Part shown: positions 1 to 10,125 of the stretch, in pieces
Layout: every line of letters begins with the position of its first letter
How positions within the stretch are numbered: the stretch's first letter is position 1
Virus record (IMG/VR): IMGVR_UViG_2585427783_000002
Length of the DNA: 10,125 nucleotides
DNA from: a virus
Taxonomy: Duplodnaviria > Heunggongvirae > Uroviricota > Caudoviricetes
Direction: 5' to 3' (one strand)
Program-made: the position numbers and the translations under genes
The notes under the pieces: generated by a model
The model's database searches: none
What the model was told of the DNA's origin: nothing
What the model saw: the letters and a program-made list of their open reading frames with translations, nothing else

Positions 1-1293
<1,293 letters not shown>

Positions 1294-1448: not shown

Positions 1449-1472
1449 GGTGTCCTCATGAGTGAGGGAACC

Positions 1473-1504
1473 AAAAAGAAAACCCGCAGTTTTTACGCTG
1501 CGGG
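1473..1504 (-). terminator. Intrinsic terminator, probable 3' end of the hok-like mRNA
   Basis: 7-bp stem CCCGCAG (1483-1489) / CTGCGGG (1498-1504). On the minus strand it is followed by a U-tract (reverse complement of AAAAAGAAAA at 1473-1482). It lies about 95 nt downstream of the hok-like stop. Confidence 0.5.
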
Positions 1505-1598
1505 CTTGTTGTTCACGTCAACTGGAAATAGGGTGCCTTTTCGACCTTTACCCTGGCAACCGATTGACGGGGAAGTTGCCTTCCCCGTCGCGGTTTCC

Positions 1599-1739
1599 TT
1601 ACTGCTTACACTGTAAGAACGCCGCAAACTCCGCTCCCCAGAAGCTCATCCGTATTTCGCACAGTGAACCGTGCAGCATCCAGATGATGAGGATTGCCGT
1701 CACGCAGAACGTGATGGCCGTAAGCGATTTTTGCGACAT
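1599..1739 (-). CDS. Hok/Gef-family type I toxin (46 aa), not in the ORF track
   Basis: Minus-strand ATG at 1739 to TAA at 1599-1601, with an AAGGAG Shine-Dalgarno 8 nt upstream. Translation: MSQKSLTAITFCVTAILIIWMLHGSLCEIRMSFWGAEFAAFLQCKQ. It has an N-terminal hydrophobic helix, the SLCEIR motif of Hok, and an AAFL-C-K tail like HokA/HokB (family signatures recalled from memory). Confidence 0.8.
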   Translation of the reverse strand: MSQKSLTAITFCVTAILIIWMLHGSLCEIRMSFWGAEFAAFLQCKQ

Positions 1740-1869
1740 AGCACTTGCTCCTTTTCCGGAGAGGCGCTAACCTTTCACTTGTCAAGGTAATGCGGTTAGG
1801 GCCTCGGTTAAACAGAGATGTTTTCCGGGGCCTTTCCACATCTGGCCTTCGGGTATTCCCTCCGACCAT
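1606..1869 (-). CDS. mok-like overlapping frame; start codon uncertain
   Basis: An open frame in a different register covers almost the whole hok-like gene and stops 7 nt before its stop, which is the layout of mok relative to hok. There is no convincing Shine-Dalgarno at the 1869 ATG, so the true start may be an internal or non-ATG codon. Confidence 0.3.
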   Translation of the reverse strand: MVGGNTRRPDVERPRKTSLFNRGPNRITLTSERLAPLRKRSKCYVAKIAYGHHVLRDGNPHHLDAARFTVRNTDELLGSGVCGVLTV

Positions 1870-1891
1870 CAGCCGAAAGGCACCCGCGCGT

Positions 1892-1920
1892 AATCTATCG
1901 CTTTTTTGTTAATCCGGCAA
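1892..1920 (-). promoter_or_regulatory. Candidate sigma-70 promoter for the hok-like mRNA
   Basis: On the minus strand: -35 TTGCCG (plus 1915-1920), 17-bp spacer, -10 TAGATT (plus 1892-1897). A start near 1885 and the terminator near 1475 would give a transcript of about 400 nt, the size class of hok mRNAs. Prediction by motif only. Confidence 0.3.
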
Positions 1921-1929
1921 TTCTGCCTG

Positions 1930-2190
1930 TTAGTTCTGAGGTAAAGGCAAACTCATCTGATTGTTTCCCCTGTGTGAAGCTGGCAGCTCATGCCACGGGA
2001 TACCTTCTGAAGAGTGAACGGCGGAGGCGTGTTTTGATGTGAATTTATGGAAAGCTTCCAGTGTTGAGAAGCATACGCCGCATTCCAGGTTGTTACACTG
2101 GTAATACTTTTGCCGCACGGTGTTTGAATCATTTTCCGGACGACTGGTGCGGATACGGGCAGATGCGCCACAAAGCGGACAACGGAACAT
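1930..2190 (-). CDS. ogr: Ogr/Delta-family zinc-finger late transcription activator
   Basis: 86-aa ORF beginning MFRCPLCGASARIRTSR and containing YYQCNNLECG, giving the Cys-X2-Cys ... Cys-X4-Cys arrangement of P2 Ogr. AAGGGAGG Shine-Dalgarno upstream of the ATG at 2190. Confidence 0.9.
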   Translation of the reverse strand: MFRCPLCGASARIRTSRPENDSNTVRQKYYQCNNLECGVCFSTLEAFHKFTSKHASAVHSSEGIPWHELPASHRGNNQMSLPLPQN

Positions 2191-2232
2191 AGCGACCTCC
2201 CTTAACGTGGTGCTGCCGCTATTCTAAGTTGC

Positions 2233-3342
2233 TCACTCTGTTTCCGCTATCCATTCCGGGATTTTTGCCTCAAGCTCAAGCTGCGTGGTAAAGCCGCTGT
2301 TATCAATAGTGTGCTCGGCTTTTGCAATGATCCAGTCCTGATTATCAATCTCGCTTTTAAATCCTGTTACCGTACCATGCATTTCGGGGTAGAGTTCTGC
2401 ACGTCCACGCGCCAGCGTGATGGAGAATGATGCGGCTCCGCGTTGTAGCTGCTGCCACTTTGCCGCCGCTGCGCGTCTTGCTGCCTGTTCGTTCTGATAG
2501 GTCTTGCGTAACACAAACACATTGCCTTCCGCGCCTTCCATATAATCACCTTCACGGCTGCTGCTTTTCTCCTTTTTGGGTTTTGGCGGTTTGCGGCGTT
2601 TCACGCTGACTTTTTTCTTTTTCCCGTAATTAAGATCAAGCCAGTAAGCGCGTACCCCCGTATACGCTTCGCGGTCAGCAATGCGGAACTGATGGCGATC
2701 GCCACTGCTGCGCGTGATGGCGAACGAGGGCAACGGCTGGCCCTGTGCGTTCACGCCACCGCCTGGCATGATGAATAACAGATTACCGCTTTTTACCGTA
2801 GTGATTGCGCCCAGCATTTCCGCCATGCGCGTAAGGAAGGACATGTCGCTTTCTTCGGTCTGGTCGGCGTGGTCGATTTCGATATCCATCAGCATTTCGC
2901 TGATTTGTGGTTTCAGACCGTACCGATGAGCGATGGCGGATACCACGCGCTCAACGGTCACATCATGCCAGGACACCTCACGTTTAACGTTAAATTCATC
3001 CCGAAAATCTGCGCTTCTGGCTGAAACAGTCAGCCTGTCCGGCGGTCCTTCGTGAGCGATTTCATCAACAATGTAAGTGCCTTTTTCTGTCAGCGGTTCT
3101 CCTTTCCAGCCAATGAGAACCGTCAGGCGCGCGCCCCGTGGCGGTAGCAGCAACTGACCATCCGCATCATCCAGCGTGATGGTGAGCTGGTCCGCCTCAA
3201 ATCCCCGGTTGTCGGTCAGTGACAGGCTCATCAGGCACTCTGCCACGCCTGACAGCGTTTTACCCTCCGCGAGAATATCAAAATCCGGCATTTTCACGGG
3301 GTCTGTGCCCTGACTGAGCAATTGCATGGTGGTGTCGGTCAT
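2233..3342 (-). CDS. D: P2 gpD-like tail protein (late control gene D)
   Basis: Long minus-strand ORF with the gpD-type layout, including a lysine-rich internal segment. I place the start at the ATG at 3342 because GGAGGGAG sits directly upstream; the track ORF extends to 3474 but that extension has no ribosome-binding site. Confidence 0.88.
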   Translation of the reverse strand: MTDTTMQLLSQGTDPVKMPDFDILAEGKTLSGVAECLMSLSLTDNRGFEADQLTITLDDADGQLLLPPRGARLTVLIGWKGEPLTEKGTYIVDEIAHEGPPDRLTVSARSADFRDEFNVKREVSWHDVTVERVVSAIAHRYGLKPQISEMLMDIEIDHADQTEESDMSFLTRMAEMLGAITTVKSGNLLFIMPGGGVNAQGQPLPSFAITRSSGDRHQFRIADREAYTGVRAYWLDLNYGKKKKVSVKRRKPPKPKKEKSSSREGDYMEGAEGNVFVLRKTYQNEQAARRAAAAKWQQLQRGAASFSITLARGRAELYPEMHGTVTGFKSEIDNQDWIIAKAEHTIDNSGFTTQLELEAKIPEWIAETE

Positions 3343-3499
3343 CTGCTCCCTCCCTGTGCGGCATGGTCGCATGTGCGTGCGGAGGGGGTTACTGCTTTTT
3401 GTTGTCGCCGTGGCGGGAGAACGGCGCAGGGGTGAGATTACGCGCGTGGTGGGTGATGATTGTTGCCGAATCATTTAACGGATACAAGGGGCTGAAGCT

Positions 3500-4684
3500 A
3501 TGAGTGAAACTCGTTTTCATGGTGCCCGTGTTACGGAAAGTACCGACCTGGTAACAGCGATTAATGATGTTGATTCCAGCGTTATCGGTATCGTGGCAAC
3601 GGCGGATGATGCGGACGCGAAGCTGTTCCCGCTGAACAAGCCCACACTGCTGACCCGCGTCAATGACGTGCTGGGAAAATGCGGGACAACGGGGACGCTT
3701 TATCGTGCGCTTAAGGCCATCGCAGACCAGGTGAGCACAAAGGTGATCGTCGTTCGCGTGGCTGAACACAAAGAAGAAAACGGAAAGACGCAGGATCAAC
3801 TGGTTATCGGTGGTTCTGAATCTGACGGCAGCTATACGGGGATGTATGCGCTGCTTGTTGCAGAGCAGGATGAAAGCATCGGATACCGTCCGCGTATTCT
3901 GGCCGCGCCGGAGCTGGACACGGAGGCGGTGACAAAATCCCTGTGCGTGATTGCGGGTAAACTGCGCGCGTTTGTGTATGCCGCATGTCATGGTTGTAAC
4001 ACGATGGCTGAGGCGATTACCTACCGCCAGAAATTCAACGAACGTGAGGTGATGCTCTTATGGCCTGACTTCATCGCCTACAACCCGAAAAGTGGCAAAA
4101 ACGAAACGTTCCCCGCGCCTGCTTATGCGTGCGGCCTTCGTGCGTACATTGACCATGAGCAGGGTTGGCACAAATCGCTGTCCAACGTTCCGGTTAAAAA
4201 TGTGCTGGGGATGTCGAGGCATGTGTTCTGGTCGTTACAGGCCGAAGACAGTGATGCCAACAGCCTCAACAACAAAGAAATCACGACCATTATTCGTCGT
4301 AACGGGTTCCGCTTCTGGGGCAACCGCACACCGGAAACGAACGCCTACATCTTTGAGGTGTATACCCGAACCGCACAGGTGCTGGCTGATTCAATTGCGG
4401 AAGCGCAGTTTGAAACCATCGACAGTCCACTGACGCCTGCGAACGTGAAGGATGTTATCAGTGCCATCAGGGCAAAACTGGATTCACTGGTTACTGCCGG
4501 GAAACTGATTGGGGCGTCGTGCTGGTATGACGTGGTGGATAACAGCACCACGAATTTACGTCAGGGGCGTGTGCGTATTCGCTACAAATATACGCCCGTT
4601 CCGCCGCTGGAAGACATGGAGCTTTACCAGTCGTTTACTGATGAATTCTTTGGTCCCGCATTTGCGGTGCTGGGAGGTGCCTGA
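3500..4684 (+). CDS. FI: Contractile tail sheath protein (P2 FI-like)
   Basis: 394-aa ORF that aligns by eye along its length with P2 FI as I recall it, with shared motifs DQEQGWHK/DHEQGWHK, RRDGFRFWGNRT/RRNGFRFWGNRT and YTPVPPLE. Confidence 0.95.
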   Translation: MSETRFHGARVTESTDLVTAINDVDSSVIGIVATADDADAKLFPLNKPTLLTRVNDVLGKCGTTGTLYRALKAIADQVSTKVIVVRVAEHKEENGKTQDQLVIGGSESDGSYTGMYALLVAEQDESIGYRPRILAAPELDTEAVTKSLCVIAGKLRAFVYAACHGCNTMAEAITYRQKFNEREVMLLWPDFIAYNPKSGKNETFPAPAYACGLRAYIDHEQGWHKSLSNVPVKNVLGMSRHVFWSLQAEDSDANSLNNKEITTIIRRNGFRFWGNRTPETNAYIFEVYTRTAQVLADSIAEAQFETIDSPLTPANVKDVISAIRAKLDSLVTAGKLIGASCWYDVVDNSTTNLRQGRVRIRYKYTPVPPLEDMELYQSFTDEFFGPAFAVLGGA

Positions 4685-5196
4685 TGGCTGTACCAAAACA
4701 TCTTCGCTTTTTTACGCTGTTTGTGGATGGTGAAAACGAAGTGGGTAAGGTGACGTCCGTCACGCCGCCCAAACTGACGCGCAAAACCGACAGCTATCGG
4801 GGTGGTGGCATGATGGGGGCGGTAAGTATTGATCTCGGTCTGGACGACTCCGCGCTTGATGCGAGTTTTGTTATGGGGGGAGCTGTTCGTGCGCTGTTCC
4901 TTAAATATGGCGGCACGATTGACGGCACGCTGCTGCGTTTTGCGGGTGAATACTACACCGATGCAGAAAGCGATCTGTATGAAATCGAGATGCGCGGGCG
5001 TGTGACGGAAATTGATATGGGGGAGGCCAAACAGGGCGAAGCCACATCACACACTTACGCTGTCAAAAACACCTACTACAAGCTGAGCGTTAACGATCGC
5101 CCGCTGTGGGAAATCGACCTGCTGAACCACATCTACCGGAAGGACGGCAAGGACATTGTGCCCGATCGCATCCGTTCCGCGCTTGGGCTTGGCTGA
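4684..5196 (+). CDS. FII: Tail tube protein (P2 FII-like)
   Basis: 170-aa ORF whose ATG overlaps the FI stop (TGATG coupling). It contains PPKLTRK, YRGGGM and VMRGR..EIDMGE..QGE, which match the FII pattern. Confidence 0.93.
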   Translation: MAVPKHLRFFTLFVDGENEVGKVTSVTPPKLTRKTDSYRGGGMMGAVSIDLGLDDSALDASFVMGGAVRALFLKYGGTIDGTLLRFAGEYYTDAESDLYEIEMRGRVTEIDMGEAKQGEATSHTYAVKNTYYKLSVNDRPLWEIDLLNHIYRKDGKDIVPDRIRSALGLG

Positions 5197-5208
5197 TAAG
5201 TAATATGC

Positions 5209-5229
5209 AGGCGGCGCAGTGCGTCGCCT
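5209..5229 (+). other. Intercistronic stem-loop between FII and E
   Basis: Near-perfect inverted repeat AGGCGGCGCA / TGCGTCGCCT with one G-U pair and no U-tract after it, lying between the FII stop (5196) and the AAGGAG Shine-Dalgarno of E. Confidence 0.3.
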
Positions 5230-5250
5230 CTGACTGAAAGGAGACAACTG

Positions 5251-5624
5251 ATGAAAGATATCGATACTGAAACCCGGAATAACACCGTAGCGGATGATGT
5301 GACGGCAGGGGAGGATATGGCTGTCGAACGTGGTGTAAAACTTTCCCGGCCAATTGAGCGTGGTGGCGAAAAAATCACATATGTGGAGATCACCGGGGCT
5401 ATTGAGCAGGCGGGATCCCTGCGTGGTCTGTCGCTGTCTGATGTGCTGAATCTGAAAGCGGATCCATGTTCACGCTGCTGCCTCGCGTGACCTCGCCACG
5501 ACTGGATGAAGTGATGATTAAAAAAATGGCATCACGCGACTTTATTCAGTTGTGCGCTGTGGCTGTAAATTTTATGAGCGAGCCAGACTCTGGCGCGAAG
5601 AGCGTGCAGGAGACGGCAGCCTAA
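5251..5624 (+). pseudogene. E: Tail assembly chaperone E (gpE-like) with an internal frame break
   Basis: Frame 1 (5251 onward) encodes the conserved N-terminal part, including GSLRGLSLSDVLNLKAD, but stops at 5488-5490 after a non-homologous tail. The conserved continuation MFTLLPRVTSPRLDEV...AVAVNF is in the -1 frame from 5466 to 5624. This is consistent with a 1-bp deletion near 5461-5466, or a sequencing error. Confidence 0.6.
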
Positions 5625-5788
5625 TCACCCTGGTGTGCTTTGAGCACATCGAAGATCTGGTGGCGGATATTGCCGCCATTTTTAACTGGTCGCCCGCCGA
5701 AATCTTCATGATGACGCCCGGCGAAGTGGTTAGCTGGCGCGAGCGGGCGGCACTTCGCAGCGGGAATGCAGACAATGAAGACTCTTGA
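5522..5788 (+). CDS. E-prime extension frame, expected to be expressed only as an E+E-prime fusion
   Basis: Frame -1 relative to the distal E frame, open from 5522 to TGA at 5786-5788. It encodes ...IEDLVADIAAIFNWSPAEIFMMTPGEVVSWRERAALR, which resembles the gpE-prime C-terminal domain, and its end overlaps the T start. Confidence 0.5.
   Translation, partial: KNGITRLYSVVRCGCKFYERARLWREERAGDGSLITLVCFEHIEDLVADIAAIFNWSPAEIFMMTPGEVVSWRERAALRSGNADNEDS
5567..5573 (+). promoter_or_regulatory. Candidate -1 programmed frameshift heptamer A AAT TTT for E to E-prime
   Basis: It is the only X-XXY-YYZ heptamer in register with the E frame inside the window where E-prime is open (5522-5621). It sits at the ...VNF position, analogous to where I recall the P2 slippery run lying. 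Confidence 0.4.
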
Positions 5789-8582
5789 TATCCGGGTCGC
5801 TTTCAGCGCCGTTGACAGGCTGACCCGGCCTGCCGAAAACGCCCGCCGCCTGATGGGGCAGTTTGGTGACTCCATCCAGCGAACGCAGGGGGCGATCAAA
5901 AATCTCGAGCGTCAGGCGCGTTCATTTGAGCGCGCCCGTGACGCTGTCAGTAAAGCGGATGCGGGCATCGTGAAAGCACGACGCCAGCTTAACGCCCTTA
6001 ATCAGTTACAACGCACGGGTACAGTGCTCAGCGAAAAACAACAAAAGCTGATGCAGCAGTTAAGCACCCGGCTTGAACGCCTGAATGAATCGCGCACACG
6101 GGAAATTCAGAAAATGCGGGAACTTGGCGGAGAGCTGAAACGCCACGGCATTTCCCTGACAGGCAGCGATAACACCATCCAGCAGGCCATCAGACGCACC
6201 GAACAGTACAACAATCAGCTTGAACGCGAACGGCAGGCGCTTGCGCGTGTAACGCGGGCGCGTGAGCGGTATTCGCGCGCGCAGGAAACCGCGGGAAAAC
6301 TGAAAACAGGTGGTGCGCTGACAATTGGTGCGGCAGCGGCTGGCGGCTATGCTGCCGGGCGTTTTTTGCAGCCTGCGATCGGGTTCGGGAAAGAGATGTC
6401 CCGCGTTCAGGCACTGACGCGAATCGACAAGAACAGCCCGCAGTTTAAGGCGCTGCGTGAGCAGGCGTTAAAACTTGGCTCTGAAACGCAGTTCACCGCA
6501 GGCGATGCCGCCAGTGGGCAGGCATTTCTGGCAATGGCTGGCTTCACACCGCAGGCCATTCAGGCTGCGCTTCCCGGCGTGCTGAGCATGGCAACGGCTG
6601 GCGGTATGGACCTTGGCGAGACGGCAGATATTGGCTCAAATATCCTGACGCAGTTCGGCCTCTCCGCTGACCAGATGGACCGGGTCGGTGACACGCTTAC
6701 AGCAGTGTTTACCCGTACTAACACTGACCTTCGCGCACTGGGCGAAACCATGAAATATGCAGGTCCGGTGGCGGGTAAGCTGGGAATATCGCTGGAGCAG
6801 GCCGCAGCGATGGCGGGCGTGCTGGCGAATATGGGTATCAGAGGGAGTGATGCCGGGACGGCAATGCGTGCCAGCCTGGCTCGTCTGGCATCACCGCCAA
6901 AGGCGGCAGCAGAAGCGCTGAAAGAGCTGGGTGTGTCCGCCTCTGATGCGAACGGCAAAATGCGCCCGATGGAAGATGTGCTGGCCGACCTTTATAAAGC
7001 CACCCGTAAATACGGGGAAGTTGACCGGGTATCGTTCTTTAAGGACATTGCCGGGGAAGAGGCTTTCACGTCGTTTATGGCTCTCGTTGATGCGGCGGGT
7101 GACGGCTCCCTGCCCAAACTGAGAAAAGAACTTGAGGGCGCACGCGGTGAGGCTGAACGCACGGCAAAGGTTATGGCCAATAACCTTGATGGCGACCTGA
7201 AATCACTCGGCAGTGCATGGGAAGGGCTGCGTATCCGCATTGCAGATCTGATTGATGGTCCGCTGCGTTCTGTCACGCAGTGGCTCACGCGGGTGGTCTC
7301 AAAGGTGACGGCGCTGGCACAGGCCCATCCGGTACTGACGCGCCAGTTACTGATAGCAGGCGGTGCGCTGCTGGCAATGACTGCAACGGTTGGCTCGTTG
7401 TCGCTGGTTATTGGAGTGCTTCACGGGAAGCTGGCCACGTTGCGTCTTGGTTTTTCTCTCCTGACCGGATCAATGAATGCTGTCAGGCTCCTGCCAGCAC
7501 TATGGGGAATGGTGACGGGTTCCGTTTCGTTACTGGGGGGCGCTATCGGGGCGCTGTTCAGCCCGGTCGGATTGATTGCTGCTGCGTTTGTGGCTGCGGC
7601 GGTTCTCATCTGGAAATACTGGGAACCCATCAAGGCGTTTTATGCCGGGGTGTTCAGCGGGATTATGGAGCGGCTGGCCCCGTTACGCGAAACCTTTGAA
7701 CGGTTTGGTCCTGTTTTTGACGCAATCGGAAGCGGGATAAGTCAGGTGTTTAACTGGTTTAAATCGTTGCTGTCACCGATGGAGTCCAGCAAGGAAACGC
7801 TGGATAAATGTACCAGTGCTGGCGAGATATTCGGTAACGTTCTTGGCGGTGCGTTACAGCTTGTTCTGACGCCCGCAAAAATGTTGCTGGATACGCTGGC
7901 GTGGATACTTGAAAAACTCGGTGTGCTTCCGGATGAAGCGGAAAGGGCGAGAAAGAAAATCGAAGACGCACAGCGTGCGGCCATTCTTCAGGACAAGGTT
8001 GCTCTGTTTCAGGGAGACATTGCGAAAATCAATCCGCCGAAGTCTGCGGAAAATGGCAATGGCACCGGAGGTGATAAACCCAAAGACAATAAACCGCTCA
8101 CAGACAGCAATACCGGTACGCTACGCAGACTCAGCAAAATTGCTGATAACACAGGTAAGCTGGTTGATGAGACGAAAAAACGTATTGGCCCCGGCGATAT
8201 TGTCTTTAAGAACCTGCCCCGCGCACTTGCCGTTCGTGGGGAGTGGCAGGAGCGGAAGATTGTGCAGGTCAGTAAGCCTGCCCCCGCAATTAATATCACA
8301 CCCGTGGTCCCGGCTCCGCTGCCTCCGGCGCTGGTCCCTGTTGTTGCGGCCAGCTCCCGCCCGGTGGCGGAGGCCATACGATCTCCAGTGGCATCAGTTC
8401 CTGTAACTTCCCGTAACCGGGAGCCTGTTGCCTCCGGATTTGGTGGTGAAATTCATGTTCATCTGCATAACGTTGTTACGCAGAATCCCCGCGAACTGGC
8501 GAAACTGGTCGGTGAAATGGTCAGGGCAGAAATGGAACGGCGCGCCCGTGCCGGGCGTGGCAGTTTTTACGATAAAGATTGA
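5766..8582 (+). CDS. T: Tail tape measure protein (P2 gpT-like)
   Basis: 938-aa ORF with a coiled-coil-rich N-terminal region, a glycine/alanine-rich hydrophobic central segment and a proline-rich C-terminus, sitting between E/E-prime and U. The start could instead be the ATG at 5775. Confidence 0.9.
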   Translation: MQTMKTLDIRVAFSAVDRLTRPAENARRLMGQFGDSIQRTQGAIKNLERQARSFERARDAVSKADAGIVKARRQLNALNQLQRTGTVLSEKQQKLMQQLSTRLERLNESRTREIQKMRELGGELKRHGISLTGSDNTIQQAIRRTEQYNNQLERERQALARVTRARERYSRAQETAGKLKTGGALTIGAAAAGGYAAGRFLQPAIGFGKEMSRVQALTRIDKNSPQFKALREQALKLGSETQFTAGDAASGQAFLAMAGFTPQAIQAALPGVLSMATAGGMDLGETADIGSNILTQFGLSADQMDRVGDTLTAVFTRTNTDLRALGETMKYAGPVAGKLGISLEQAAAMAGVLANMGIRGSDAGTAMRASLARLASPPKAAAEALKELGVSASDANGKMRPMEDVLADLYKATRKYGEVDRVSFFKDIAGEEAFTSFMALVDAAGDGSLPKLRKELEGARGEAERTAKVMANNLDGDLKSLGSAWEGLRIRIADLIDGPLRSVTQWLTRVVSKVTALAQAHPVLTRQLLIAGGALLAMTATVGSLSLVIGVLHGKLATLRLGFSLLTGSMNAVRLLPALWGMVTGSVSLLGGAIGALFSPVGLIAAAFVAAAVLIWKYWEPIKAFYAGVFSGIMERLAPLRETFERFGPVFDAIGSGISQVFNWFKSLLSPMESSKETLDKCTSAGEIFGNVLGGALQLVLTPAKMLLDTLAWILEKLGVLPDEAERARKKIEDAQRAAILQDKVALFQGDIAKINPPKSAENGNGTGGDKPKDNKPLTDSNTGTLRRLSKIADNTGKLVDETKKRIGPGDIVFKNLPRALAVRGEWQERKIVQVSKPAPAINITPVVPAPLPPALVPVVAASSRPVAEAIRSPVASVPVTSRNREPVASGFGGEIHVHLHNVVTQNPRELAKLVGEMVRAEMERRARAGRGSFYDKD

Positions 8583-8594
8583 GGAGTCATGGCC

Positions 8595-9083
8595 ATGATG
8601 ATGATCTACGGCATGTTTGTTTTTGAGCTGCGCACGCTGCCGCATCAGCAGTTACAGCAAAACAAAAGCTGGCGGCATGTGAAAAATGAACGCGTTAACC
8701 GTTCAGCAAGCTGGCAGTATATCGGTGCAGGTGATGATCGCATCGTTCTTTCTGGTGTGCTTTATCCTGAAATTACAGGTGGCGAAGTGTCGCTGTCGCT
8801 GCTGACCACGCAGGCGTATACAGGACGACCCTGGCCTTTGATTGATGGCGTCGGGCAGATTTACGGCATGTATGTCCTGACCGGAACGAACACGACCCGT
8901 TCCGAGTTTGATCGCTACGGTAAGGCGAAAAAGATAGAATTTTCACTGACCCTTGAACGCTGTGATGAGGATTTGCGGGAGCGCCTGCAATCCTCATCGT
9001 TCAGCGATATGCTGTCCGGCTTCAAAGATAAAGTGACATCATCCCTTAACAGCGCGGCCAGTTCAGTTAAAGGGCTGTTCTGA
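8595..9083 (+). CDS. U: Tail protein U (P2 gpU-like)
   Basis: Translation from 8595 begins MMMIYGMFVFELRTLPHQ, matching the gpU N-terminus as I recall it. AGGAG at 8582-8586 is spaced 8 nt from this ATG; the 8589 ATG in the track is only 2 nt from it. Confidence 0.88.
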   Translation: MMMIYGMFVFELRTLPHQQLQQNKSWRHVKNERVNRSASWQYIGAGDDRIVLSGVLYPEITGGEVSLSLLTTQAYTGRPWPLIDGVGQIYGMYVLTGTNTTRSEFDRYGKAKKIEFSLTLERCDEDLRERLQSSSFSDMLSGFKDKVTSSLNSAASSVKGLF

Positions 9084-9090
9084 TTTAATG

Positions 9091-9122
9091 CTGGCCACTC
9101 ATACCTGGTAATAAGTGGCCAG
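9091..9122 (+). terminator. Stem-loop downstream of U; possible operon terminator
   Basis: 9-bp stem CTGGCCACT (9091-9099) / AGTGGCCAG (9114-9122) around a 14-nt loop. The following T-tract is weak (TCTTAAC). Confidence 0.3.
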
Positions 9123-9245
9123 TCTTAACACTCACCATTTGATTGCACCCGCGTTAACGATTTGTTACTGGGTATCAGACATGCTGGATAGCCAGTAGAA
9201 ACATACCATTAAAATTATTACAATAATTGGTCACATGATTATCTT

Positions 9246-9470
9246 ATGCTGAATAATAGAGATATGAATATTAATGAACTTAAAGACTGTATTCACTATG
9301 AAGTAATCGGTAGCGAGCGTCCTTTCTCCTGGCGAAAGGCAATTGTTCGCGCAATAAAACATAGAAGACTTCGTTATTTATTTTGGTGGCGCATAGCCAA
9401 ATACCTTTTTGATAAAGGCGGATACTGCCGGAAGATTGCGGGGAAAATAGAACGTTTCATTCTTGGGTAG
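9246..9470 (+). pseudogene. 5' fragment of a cargo gene cut by IS1; possibly a hexapeptide-repeat acetyltransferase
   Basis: ORF in an AT-rich segment whose stop codon TAG (9468-9470) is supplied by the IS1 terminal repeat. The segment RLRYLFWWRIAKYLFDKGG..KIAGKIERFI resembles the N-terminal region that precedes the hexapeptide repeats in CysE/WcaB-type acetyltransferases. That assignment is tentative and from memory. Confidence 0.45.
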
Positions 9471-9488
9471 TGACTCCAACTTACTGAT
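9466..9488. repeat. IS1 terminal inverted repeat (IRR-type end)
   Basis: Matches the recalled IS1 IRR GGTAATGACTCCAACTTATTGAT with two substitutions. Confidence 0.85.
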
Positions 9489-9985
9489 AGTGTTTTATGT
9501 TCAGATAATGCCCGATGACCTTGTCATGCAGCTCCACCGATTTTGAGAACGACAGTGACTTCCGTCCCAGCCTTGCCAGATGTTGTCTCAGATTCAGATT
9601 ATGTCGCTCAATGCGCTGAGTGTAACACTTGCTGATAACGTGCAGCTTTCCCTTCAGGCGTGATTCATACAGCGGCCAGCCATCCGTCATCCATACCACG
9701 ACCTCAAAGGCCGACAGCAGGCTCAGAAGACGCGCCAGTGTGGCCAGAGTGCGTTCACCGAAAAACGTGGGCCACGACAGTCCTGCGTACCCTGTCATAC
9801 GCGTAAAACAGCCAGCGCTGGCGTGATTTAGCCCCGACGTAGCTCCACTGTTCGTCCATTTCCGCGCAGACGATGACGTCCCTGCCCGGCTGTATGCGCG
9901 AGGTTACCGACTGCGGCCTGAGTTTTTTAAATGGCGGAAAATCGTGTTGAGGCCAACGCCAATAATGCGGGCAGTTGCCCGGCAT
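9481..9985 (-). pseudogene. insB: IS1 insB, frameshifted
   Basis: InsB homology is split between two overlapping frames (track ORFs 9755..9985 and 9481..9798). The break is at the A-run 9761-9765, where this copy has one extra base relative to the canonical ...VVAHVFGERT... coding sequence. Confidence 0.7.
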
Positions 9986-10125
9986 CCAACGCCATTCATG
10001 GCCATATCAATGATTTTCTGGTGCGTACCGGGTTGAGAAGCGGTGTAAGTGAACTGCAGTTGCCATGTTTTACGGCAATGAGAGCAGAGATAGCGCTGAT
10101 GTCCGGCAGTGCTTTTGCCGTTACG
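9904..10125 (-). CDS. insA: IS1 insA, 3' part (5' end beyond the window)
   Basis: The minus-strand translation from the window edge reads [25 protein letters not shown]...LKNSGRSR and stops at 9904-9906, matching InsA. Confidence 0.85.
9922..9928 (-). promoter_or_regulatory. IS1 AAAAAAC programmed -1 frameshift motif (insA to insAB)
   Basis: Plus-strand GTTTTTT at 9922-9928 is the reverse complement of the IS1 slippery heptamer, located at the 3' end of insA. Confidence 0.7.

Follow-up and report, generated by a model that had tools for sequence, protein, structure and literature searches.

Organisation of the locus

The window, as the whole analysed stretch of 10,125 nucleotides is called here, corresponds with 100% identity to positions 756-10880 of locus L013, which was taken from the draft contig JOQM01000008.1 (GCA_000714095.1). 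It represents the final 10 kb of this contig, which ends inside an IS1 element, 1 nt past the end of the window. A P2-like prophage is integrated beside serS, the gene at the start of the window (Table 1). The prophage part comprises the minus-strand genes hok/gef, ogr and D, a divergent gap (3343-3499), and the plus-strand genes FI, FII, E/E', T and U. The U gene, annotated as a phage tail protein (Phage_P2_GpU), is the final member of the plus-strand block and adjoins an AT-rich segment carrying a cargo gene that is interrupted by IS1. At least 80% of the window is covered in at least 305 complete E. coli genomes; the layout of the block itself was seen in all six related loci that were inspected.

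In phage P2, G is followed by fun(Z), which lies on the complementary strand, and then by pF, FI, FII, E, T, U, D and ogr; apart from fun(Z), all are read rightward. With P2 as the reference, the block from pF-FI to U is inverted with respect both to D and ogr at one end and to V-W-J-I-H-G at the other. The inversion leaves D and ogr on the opposite strand, and D is left without its upstream operon. The first-pass annotation of the window had proposed that, if the FI-to-U block was inverted, the segment after U corresponds to the region that originally lay upstream of FI; the P2 map and the intact relatives agree with both points. Long inverted repeats that would flank or explain the inversion of the FI-U block were sought, and nothing convincing was found.

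Table 1. Genes and sequence features of the window
Feature	Position	Strand	Remarks
serS	1-1293		window start; P2-like prophage follows
hok/gef, ogr, D	D, 2233-3342	-	after serS; D as called in L013
FI, FII, E/E', T, U	3500-9083	+
Tail gene U	8589-9083	+	phage tail protein, Phage_P2_GpU
AT-rich accessory segment	9084-9465		between the U stop codon and IS1
Stem-loop	9085-9128	+	inverted repeat directly after the U stop codon; 10-bp GC-rich stem, CTGGCCACT.../...AGTGGCCAG
Sigma-70 promoter-like site	9196-9224	+	TAGAAA, 17 nt, TACAAT; consensus scan
Truncated 5' part of LbetaH acyltransferase gene	9264-9465	+	67 codons plus 1 nt; mechanical ORF 9246-9470
Left copy of 9-bp IS1 target-site duplication	9457-9465		TCATTCTTG
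IS1 element	9466-10125	- (transposase)	660 of 768 bp; reaches the end of the window and of the contig

The accessory segment and its position in the prophage

The segment between U and IS1 has a GC content of 0.385, as opposed to 0.551 for the genes from D to U (2233-9083) and 0.535 for the IS1 part, so that its earlier description as compositionally distinct and AT-rich is borne out. Homology with the UTI89-type prophages ends at position 9088, 5 nt past the U stop codon; these relatives are collinear with the window up to this point, beyond which their slot is filled by a Cin-like invertase and an invertible fibre segment. In intact relatives (L005, L002 and L001) the U gene is followed by the acyltransferase gene on the plus strand and then by the tail-fibre assembly gene G on the minus strand, and in the intact P2-like relatives the two convergent genes overlap by 37 nt at the 3' end of G. 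Convergence with G, low GC content (0.37-0.39 vs 0.55) and variable content among collinear relatives identify this place as the P2 Z/fun slot, the FI side of which is replaced here by U owing to the block inversion. The segment had been assigned at first pass to the variable P2 accessory locus upstream of FI, known as Z/fun in P2, and this assignment holds for both slot and orientation, an invertase cassette occupying the slot in the UTI89-type relatives.

The fun(Z) gene of P2 likewise follows G directly, is encoded on the other strand and precedes the pF operon; it represents a non-essential lysogenic-conversion cargo in a slot whose content varies among relatives. The two genes are likened by slot and orientation. 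However, the fun(Z) product of about 528 aa is much larger than the 181-aa acyltransferase, the fun(Z) slot adjoins pF whereas the acyltransferase cargo adjoins U after the inversion, and the fun(Z) product blocks T5 while the acyltransferase gene has a candidate role only.

DNA invertases were also seen near this cargo. In UTI89 (L006, 18112-20745), as in the serS prophages of its type, a Cin/Hin-like recombinase and an invertible tail-fibre/assembly segment replace the acetyltransferase, and in a lambdoid copy (L021, 4892-4984) remnants of a DNA invertase adjoin it.

The inverted repeat directly after the U stop codon folds into a hairpin of -20 kcal/mol (z = -1.9, a weak value) without a T-run. 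It is common only to the P2-like and the 47-kb phage-plasmid copies and is absent from the other backbones; it may serve as a terminator. An Rfam scan of positions 8900-9600 returned only a chance miRNA match (E = 0.37), and no known RNA element was found in the 162-nt leader.

The truncated gene and its promoter

The mechanical ORF at 9246-9470 on the plus strand encodes a 74-aa product, MLNNRDMNINELKDC...ERFILG*, the TAG stop codon of which (9468-9470) lies within the IS1 terminal repeat. The ATG at 9246 is not conserved, being destroyed in the alleles of the lambdoid prophage and of another myovirus prophage, while the ATG at 9264 is invariant across the aligned alleles and is the codon at which the RefSeq protein and the distant homologues begin. 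Since the conserved start is at 9264, 67 codons of the gene survive rather than 73: the first-pass annotation was right about the reading frame and about its exact cut at IS1, but its count of 73 codons has to be revised.

The fragment in the window is identical to the 5' part of the intact alleles WP_001418511.1 and WP_244443963.1. It comprises only the N-terminal helical region of the protein, with zero hexapeptide repeats, and searches of the 74-aa window product against the Pfam and NCBIfam profiles gave no match. The acetyltransferase identity of the gene therefore rests on the intact alleles and on the gene rebuilt across the IS1. The first-pass comparison with CysE/WcaB-type enzymes is supported on the rebuilt protein, which matches such profiles; the fragment alone cannot be classified.

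Both hexamers of the sigma-70 promoter-like site upstream of the gene are kept in all six aligned copies, which come from five backbones, and in three of them the -10 element reads TATAAT. Homology across the backbones starts at about 9176-9195, just 5' of the site, which probably acts as the promoter of the cargo gene. Low GC content, a predicted promoter of its own and an antisense orientation relative to the late operon make up the classic anatomy of a 'moron' (phage accessory gene).

IS1 insertion and its junction in other genomes

The IS1 element starts at position 9466 with its terminal repeat GGTAGTGACTCCAACTTACTGATAG (GGTAGTGACTCC...), immediately after the target-site duplication at 9457-9465, confirming the earlier observation that the gene is cut exactly at the IS1 terminal repeat. 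DDE_Tnp_IS1 and InsA gene calls were made at the matching place in L010 and L013, and the element aligns with the 768-bp IS1 of L001. In the last of these, a complete genome with the same junction, the 768-bp IS1 has TCATTCTTG on either side and the gene resumes afterwards, while the uninterrupted sequence, ...GTTTCATTCTTGATAAA... / ...GTTTCATTCTTGATAAATAT..., is seen in L005. The 3' remainder and the target-site duplication that the first-pass annotation had proposed to look for beyond IS1 are thus both present in L001, and comparison with uninterrupted alleles, also proposed there, showed that the gene rebuilt from the two parts is, from its second ATG, identical to the intact WP_001418511.1.

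L001 displays all the marks of a simple IS1 insertion, and the window itself shows the left terminal repeat and the left copy of the duplication. A simple insertion here would read ...GGCAGCATCACC-TCATTCTTG-ATAAATATAATG..., followed by the assembly gene. The 3' remainder was also sought in the genome to which the window belongs: the contig stops in IS1, and the remainder is not among the partial homologues P0004-P0021. Ordinary IS1 insertion pseudogenes share the same 768-bp element, its terminal inverted repeats, the 9-bp duplication and an AT-rich target; compared with them nothing is unusual here, the window showing the left end only.

A 100-nt junction probe found the identical gene-IS1 junction in eight of 5426 complete E. 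coli genomes, each of them from an ETEC isolate in which the interrupted copy resides in a sister prophage at the pgsA-tRNA-Leu site; L001 is the one that was read in detail. Five other NCBI draft assemblies and three metagenome contigs have this junction as well. Its distribution bears on the possibility that it was produced by misassembly at a draft contig end and that the gene is really intact. The window does end 1 nt before the contig end, inside IS1, and a cluster of 19 mismatches between its IS1 and that of L001 would fit a collapsed repeat. However, the junction recurs unchanged in eight complete genomes, one of which (L001) also has the duplication and the gene remainder, and it is present in the further drafts and metagenome contigs, which leaves an artefact with next to no probability.

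Several irregularities were noted in the IS1 copies at this junction. The 19 mismatches relative to the L001 copy are clustered at window positions 9750-10000, inside IS1, and the transposase frame in the window is split (105 + 76 aa); the mismatch cluster may have come from several IS1 variants collapsed into one consensus, or from gene conversion among copies. In the draft locus L010 (10236-15051) an IS1 with the same left junction is followed by the type I restriction gene hsdR, in the draft locus L011 (6854-8762) by an integrase gene, while in L012 (1047-1100) only 52 nt of the IS1 end are left, joined to a part of the gene further downstream. These three structures indicate deletions or rearrangements mediated by IS1, or else misassemblies. 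In strain E1433 (NZ_CM180511.1) the two halves of the gene are found on opposite strands about 1.4 kb apart (2065520-2065872 and 2067232-2067618), which suggests an IS1-associated inversion in a complete genome.

Family and active site of the reconstructed protein

Joining window positions 9246-9465 to the remainder of the gene from L001 produced an ORF of 187 aa, which from the second ATG corresponds to the 181 aa of WP_001418511.1. The Pfam Hexapep profile (PF00132) matches the rebuilt and the intact protein with 47.5 bits against a cut-off of 27, which places it in the LbetaH superfamily. Among the NCBIfam families the best-scoring is EpsC (NF041874; 81 bits vs 150, E = 7.6e-23, residues 30-173), ahead of cysE (TIGR01172; 70.6 bits vs 210.65, E = 1.5e-19; PRK11132, 44.4 vs 397) and WcaB (TIGR04016 and PRK10191; 59.8 vs 194.65 and 61.9 vs 196, E = 4.7e-17), all of them remaining below their cut-offs. 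The profile searches with the reconstructed protein that were proposed at first pass thus return Hexapep, EpsC, cysE and WcaB, with the equivalog cut-offs missed. The best matches in a sequence search of the PDB are serine acetyltransferases (down to E = 6e-12), and the rebuilt protein belongs to PHROG 2154 (E = 7e-79), a family to which no function is assigned. A Pfam search of the rebuilt protein detected no SATase_N domain.

Judging from these matches, the protein is a hexapeptide-repeat acyltransferase of a small CysE/EpsC/WcaB-like branch that falls into none of the curated families. The name 'wcaB domain protein', which RefSeq gives to the fragment, is a domain-level one only. EpsC, WcaB and CysE are built alike, with hexapeptide coils after a short N-terminal helical region, and the aligned part of the protein spans residues 30-173. 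However, EpsC and WcaB are encoded in polysaccharide gene clusters, unlike the phage-encoded enzyme described here, which differs further from EpsC, WcaB and CysE in scoring below the curated cut-offs, in having tyrosine in place of histidine and in the absence of the serine-binding residues.

The AlphaFold model of the protein (pLDDT 76, a moderate value) contains four N-terminal helices followed by beta coils. Fold searches with this model retrieved LbetaH proteins only, with high rmsd and Foldseek E-values above 0.1. The model is consistent with a 181-aa intact protein in which a four-helix N-terminal region precedes a left-handed beta-helix.

In E. coli CysE we take His158 to be the general base, Asp143 its partner, and Asp157, Arg192 and His193 the residues that bind serine. 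The roles of these residues are known from the structures of the E. coli and H. influenzae enzymes, and His158 in particular is said to be the general base. In the rebuilt protein the position of this histidine is occupied by Tyr93, the codon of which lies outside the window, and the CysE residues Asp143, Asp157, His158, Arg192 and His193 are replaced by Thr, Ser, Tyr, Met and Asp, respectively. These positions agree in two independent alignments, a phmmer alignment to 6wye and the MAFFT alignment A1. All close relatives have tyrosine at the histidine position, in the motifs DISYL, DIAYL and NIAYL. In contrast to this fibre-linked clade, a sister clade with about 50% identity and all distant homologues keep the catalytic histidine; in the one sister-clade context that was read, the gene (ESSI2_ev015) sits after int. 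Because tyrosine replaces the histidine and the other CysE equivalents are absent, canonical O-acetyl transfer is not assured, and the chemistry may differ from that implied by the database name.

These data make it highly improbable that the protein is a true serine O-acetyltransferase, that is, a CysE paralogue that alters the cysteine and O-acetylserine metabolism of the host. The RefSeq name and the best PDB and NCBIfam matches, which are to serine acetyltransferases, are in favour of such an activity, as is a Citrobacter prophage paper that lists a homologue as a fitness gene (PMC6456863). However, the scores are far below the thresholds of both cysE profiles (70.6 vs 210.65 bits, and 44 vs 397 for PRK11132), SATase_N is missing, and T, S, Y, M and D stand where CysE has D, D, H, R and H.

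Another candidate is an N-acyltransferase whose acceptor is an amino sugar nucleotide. Such an enzyme would need no general-base histidine and would still modify a surface-glycan precursor; we regard this reading as improbable, though less so than serine acetylation.

Distribution, selection and linkage to tail-fibre genes

The gene is present in 184 of the 5426 complete E. coli genomes (~3%), with 158 locations on chromosomes and 58 on plasmids; among the matches listed, the majority of copies are intact. The dN/dS values among alleles from five phage backbones range from 0.04 to 0.155 (Nei-Gojobori), which shows that the gene is real and under purifying selection. The tyrosine at the histidine position is kept under this selection, which argues that the protein is functional.

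Outside the P2-like prophages, the same convergent arrangement of the gene with one for tail-fibre assembly occurs in 47-kb phage-plasmids and phage vB_EcoM-613R2, in a 97-kb phage-like plasmid, in a lambdoid stfR prophage, in another myovirus prophage and, with 53% identity, in Hafnia phage yong2, making six backbones in all. The block shared across the backbones extends from the promoter through the acyltransferase gene and the assembly gene to about 650 nt of the fibre 3' end, so that the gene is inherited together with the receptor-binding tip. It is linked more tightly to the module of fibre tip and assembly gene than to the P2 backbone slot. The linkage is not universal, since more distant homologues occupy other accessory-gene sites (e.g. 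after int, as in ESSI2_ev015).

The last 91 nt of a P2-type U gene, corresponding to window positions 8993-9083, were found upstream of the cassette at L003 30-120 and L008 6910-7000, the carriers being the 47-kb phage-plasmids and vB_EcoM-613R2. The presence of this fragment in phage-plasmids implies that the cassette was captured from a P2-like prophage which already had the inverted layout.

A broader generalisation is that the fibre-linked clade (PHROG 2154) represents a mobile cassette, composed of a fibre tip, its chaperone and a receptor-masking acyltransferase, which recombines as one block among P2-like, P1-like, lambdoid, phage-plasmid and other myovirus genomes, and that the His-to-Tyr change implies a different acceptor or mechanism. 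Taken as a whole, this proposal is possible but on balance doubtful. The family is of note for its dN/dS of ~0.1, its occurrence in ~3% of complete E. coli genomes and its exchange with fibre tips among unrelated temperate phages and phage-plasmids. If the enzyme does modify the receptor of the fibre, receptor-binding and receptor-masking functions would travel as one unit, with consequences for host-range prediction in phages and for serotype conversion in ETEC and other pathotypes.

Possible function of the intact enzyme

The first-pass annotation had put forward surface-polysaccharide modification or defence as possible roles. Joint transfer of the gene with fibre tip and assembly gene across six backbones indirectly supports a function connected with the receptor. 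The intact enzyme would be made in lysogens from its own sigma-70 promoter and would acetylate a cytoplasmic precursor of a surface glycan, such as O-antigen, capsule or core. The modified glycan would be the receptor of the co-inherited tail fibre, and its acetylation would mask the receptor, leading to lysogenic conversion or superinfection exclusion. This assignment, reached by analogy, is a tentative one for which the chances are close to balanced but fall slightly short of even. Literature searches for an experimental paper on the acyltransferase family or its substrate found none, returning annotation-level mentions only.

Analogues of receptor masking are provided by conversion of the Oac/OafA type and by Llp of T5, which is encoded beside the receptor-binding gene of that phage. 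Oac of Sf6 and OafA are lysogenic-conversion enzymes that acetylate the receptor glycan and exclude related phages. The O-antigen acetylases of Sf6 and of Salmonella phages are presumably membrane AT3 enzymes and not LbetaH proteins; as integral-membrane acyltransferase-3 proteins that act after export, Oac and OafA are not homologous to the soluble LbetaH protein discussed here. NeuO, the polysialic-acid O-acetyltransferase of prophage CUS-3 in E. coli K1, is likewise invoked as an analogue of receptor-glycan acetylation. However, it belongs to another LbetaH subfamily (maltose/galactoside acetyltransferase-like), has a catalytic histidine and is phase-variable through heptanucleotide repeats, whereas the acyltransferase gene has no tandem repeats: Tandem Repeats Finder reported nothing in positions 9000-9520, and a phase-variation tract of the NeuO type is absent there. 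Similarity to the related polysialic O-acetyltransferase 2wlc is marginal (E = 0.002) and concerns the last coils only.

The receptor-related role was weighed against that of an anti-phage defence gene acting inside the cell, for instance through acetylation of a component of the phage or the host that aborts infection, as cargo of a P2 hotspot might be expected to do. The gene occupies the slot of P2 fun(Z), whose product blocks T5, it is AT-rich, has its own putative promoter and is swapped between elements, and accessory and defence hotspots within the P2 tail genes have been described (PMC13586616; PMC9122126). However, acetyltransferases are not mentioned in these hotspot papers, and the 5027 models of PADLOC-DB 2.0 gave zero matches (0 families at E <= 0.1). 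In addition, a single small enzyme of biosynthetic type without a sensor or effector partner is not what defence would lead one to expect, and the close co-inheritance with the fibre tip argues for a receptor-related role more than for immunity inside the cell. Defence is thus rather unlikely, about as much so as N-acylation of an amino sugar nucleotide, and masking of the receptor of the co-inherited fibre remains the preferred role.

Fate of the gene and state of the prophage

In the strain from which the window comes, IS1 sits after codon 67 and, as mapped on the intact alleles, removes every predicted beta-helix coil along with the acyl-CoA and acceptor sites. With all of the beta-helix coils lost, the gene is null in this strain. 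Very probably, the feature as a whole is best explained as the IS1-broken, promoter-proximal stump of an autonomous accessory acyltransferase gene of the P2-like prophage. It is an ordinary feature, namely an insertion-inactivated accessory gene in a decaying prophage, and public records of complete genomes already annotate the pseudogene. The modest novelty is limited to the co-transfer with fibre tips across unrelated phages and to the His-to-Tyr change at the expected catalytic position.

The gene sequence flanking IS1 has zero differences from the intact alleles and the 9-bp duplication is perfect; the insertion is therefore recent. The window is almost identical to the L001 sister prophage at the pgsA-tRNA-Leu site over ~6750-9750 and differs from it by 2-3% over 1461-6750, with a mosaic peak at 4750-5750. 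Because near-identity is confined to the former interval while the rest of the tail region is 2-3% off, the interrupted allele seems to have been passed from one resident P2-like prophage to another by recent recombination and not to have arisen twice.

The loss of the acyltransferase gene probably reflects neutral prophage decay rather than selected loss, with which a deletion in the E-like gene fits. At about position 5464 (ORFs 5251-5490 and 5466-5624), this tail chaperone gene has a 1-nt deletion, reading GCGGAT-CCATG where strain R8 has GCGGATACCATG, which splits the gene for a 124-aa tail protein into ORFs of 79 and 52 aa. Unless it is a draft-assembly error, this deletion is a second inactivating lesion of the prophage.
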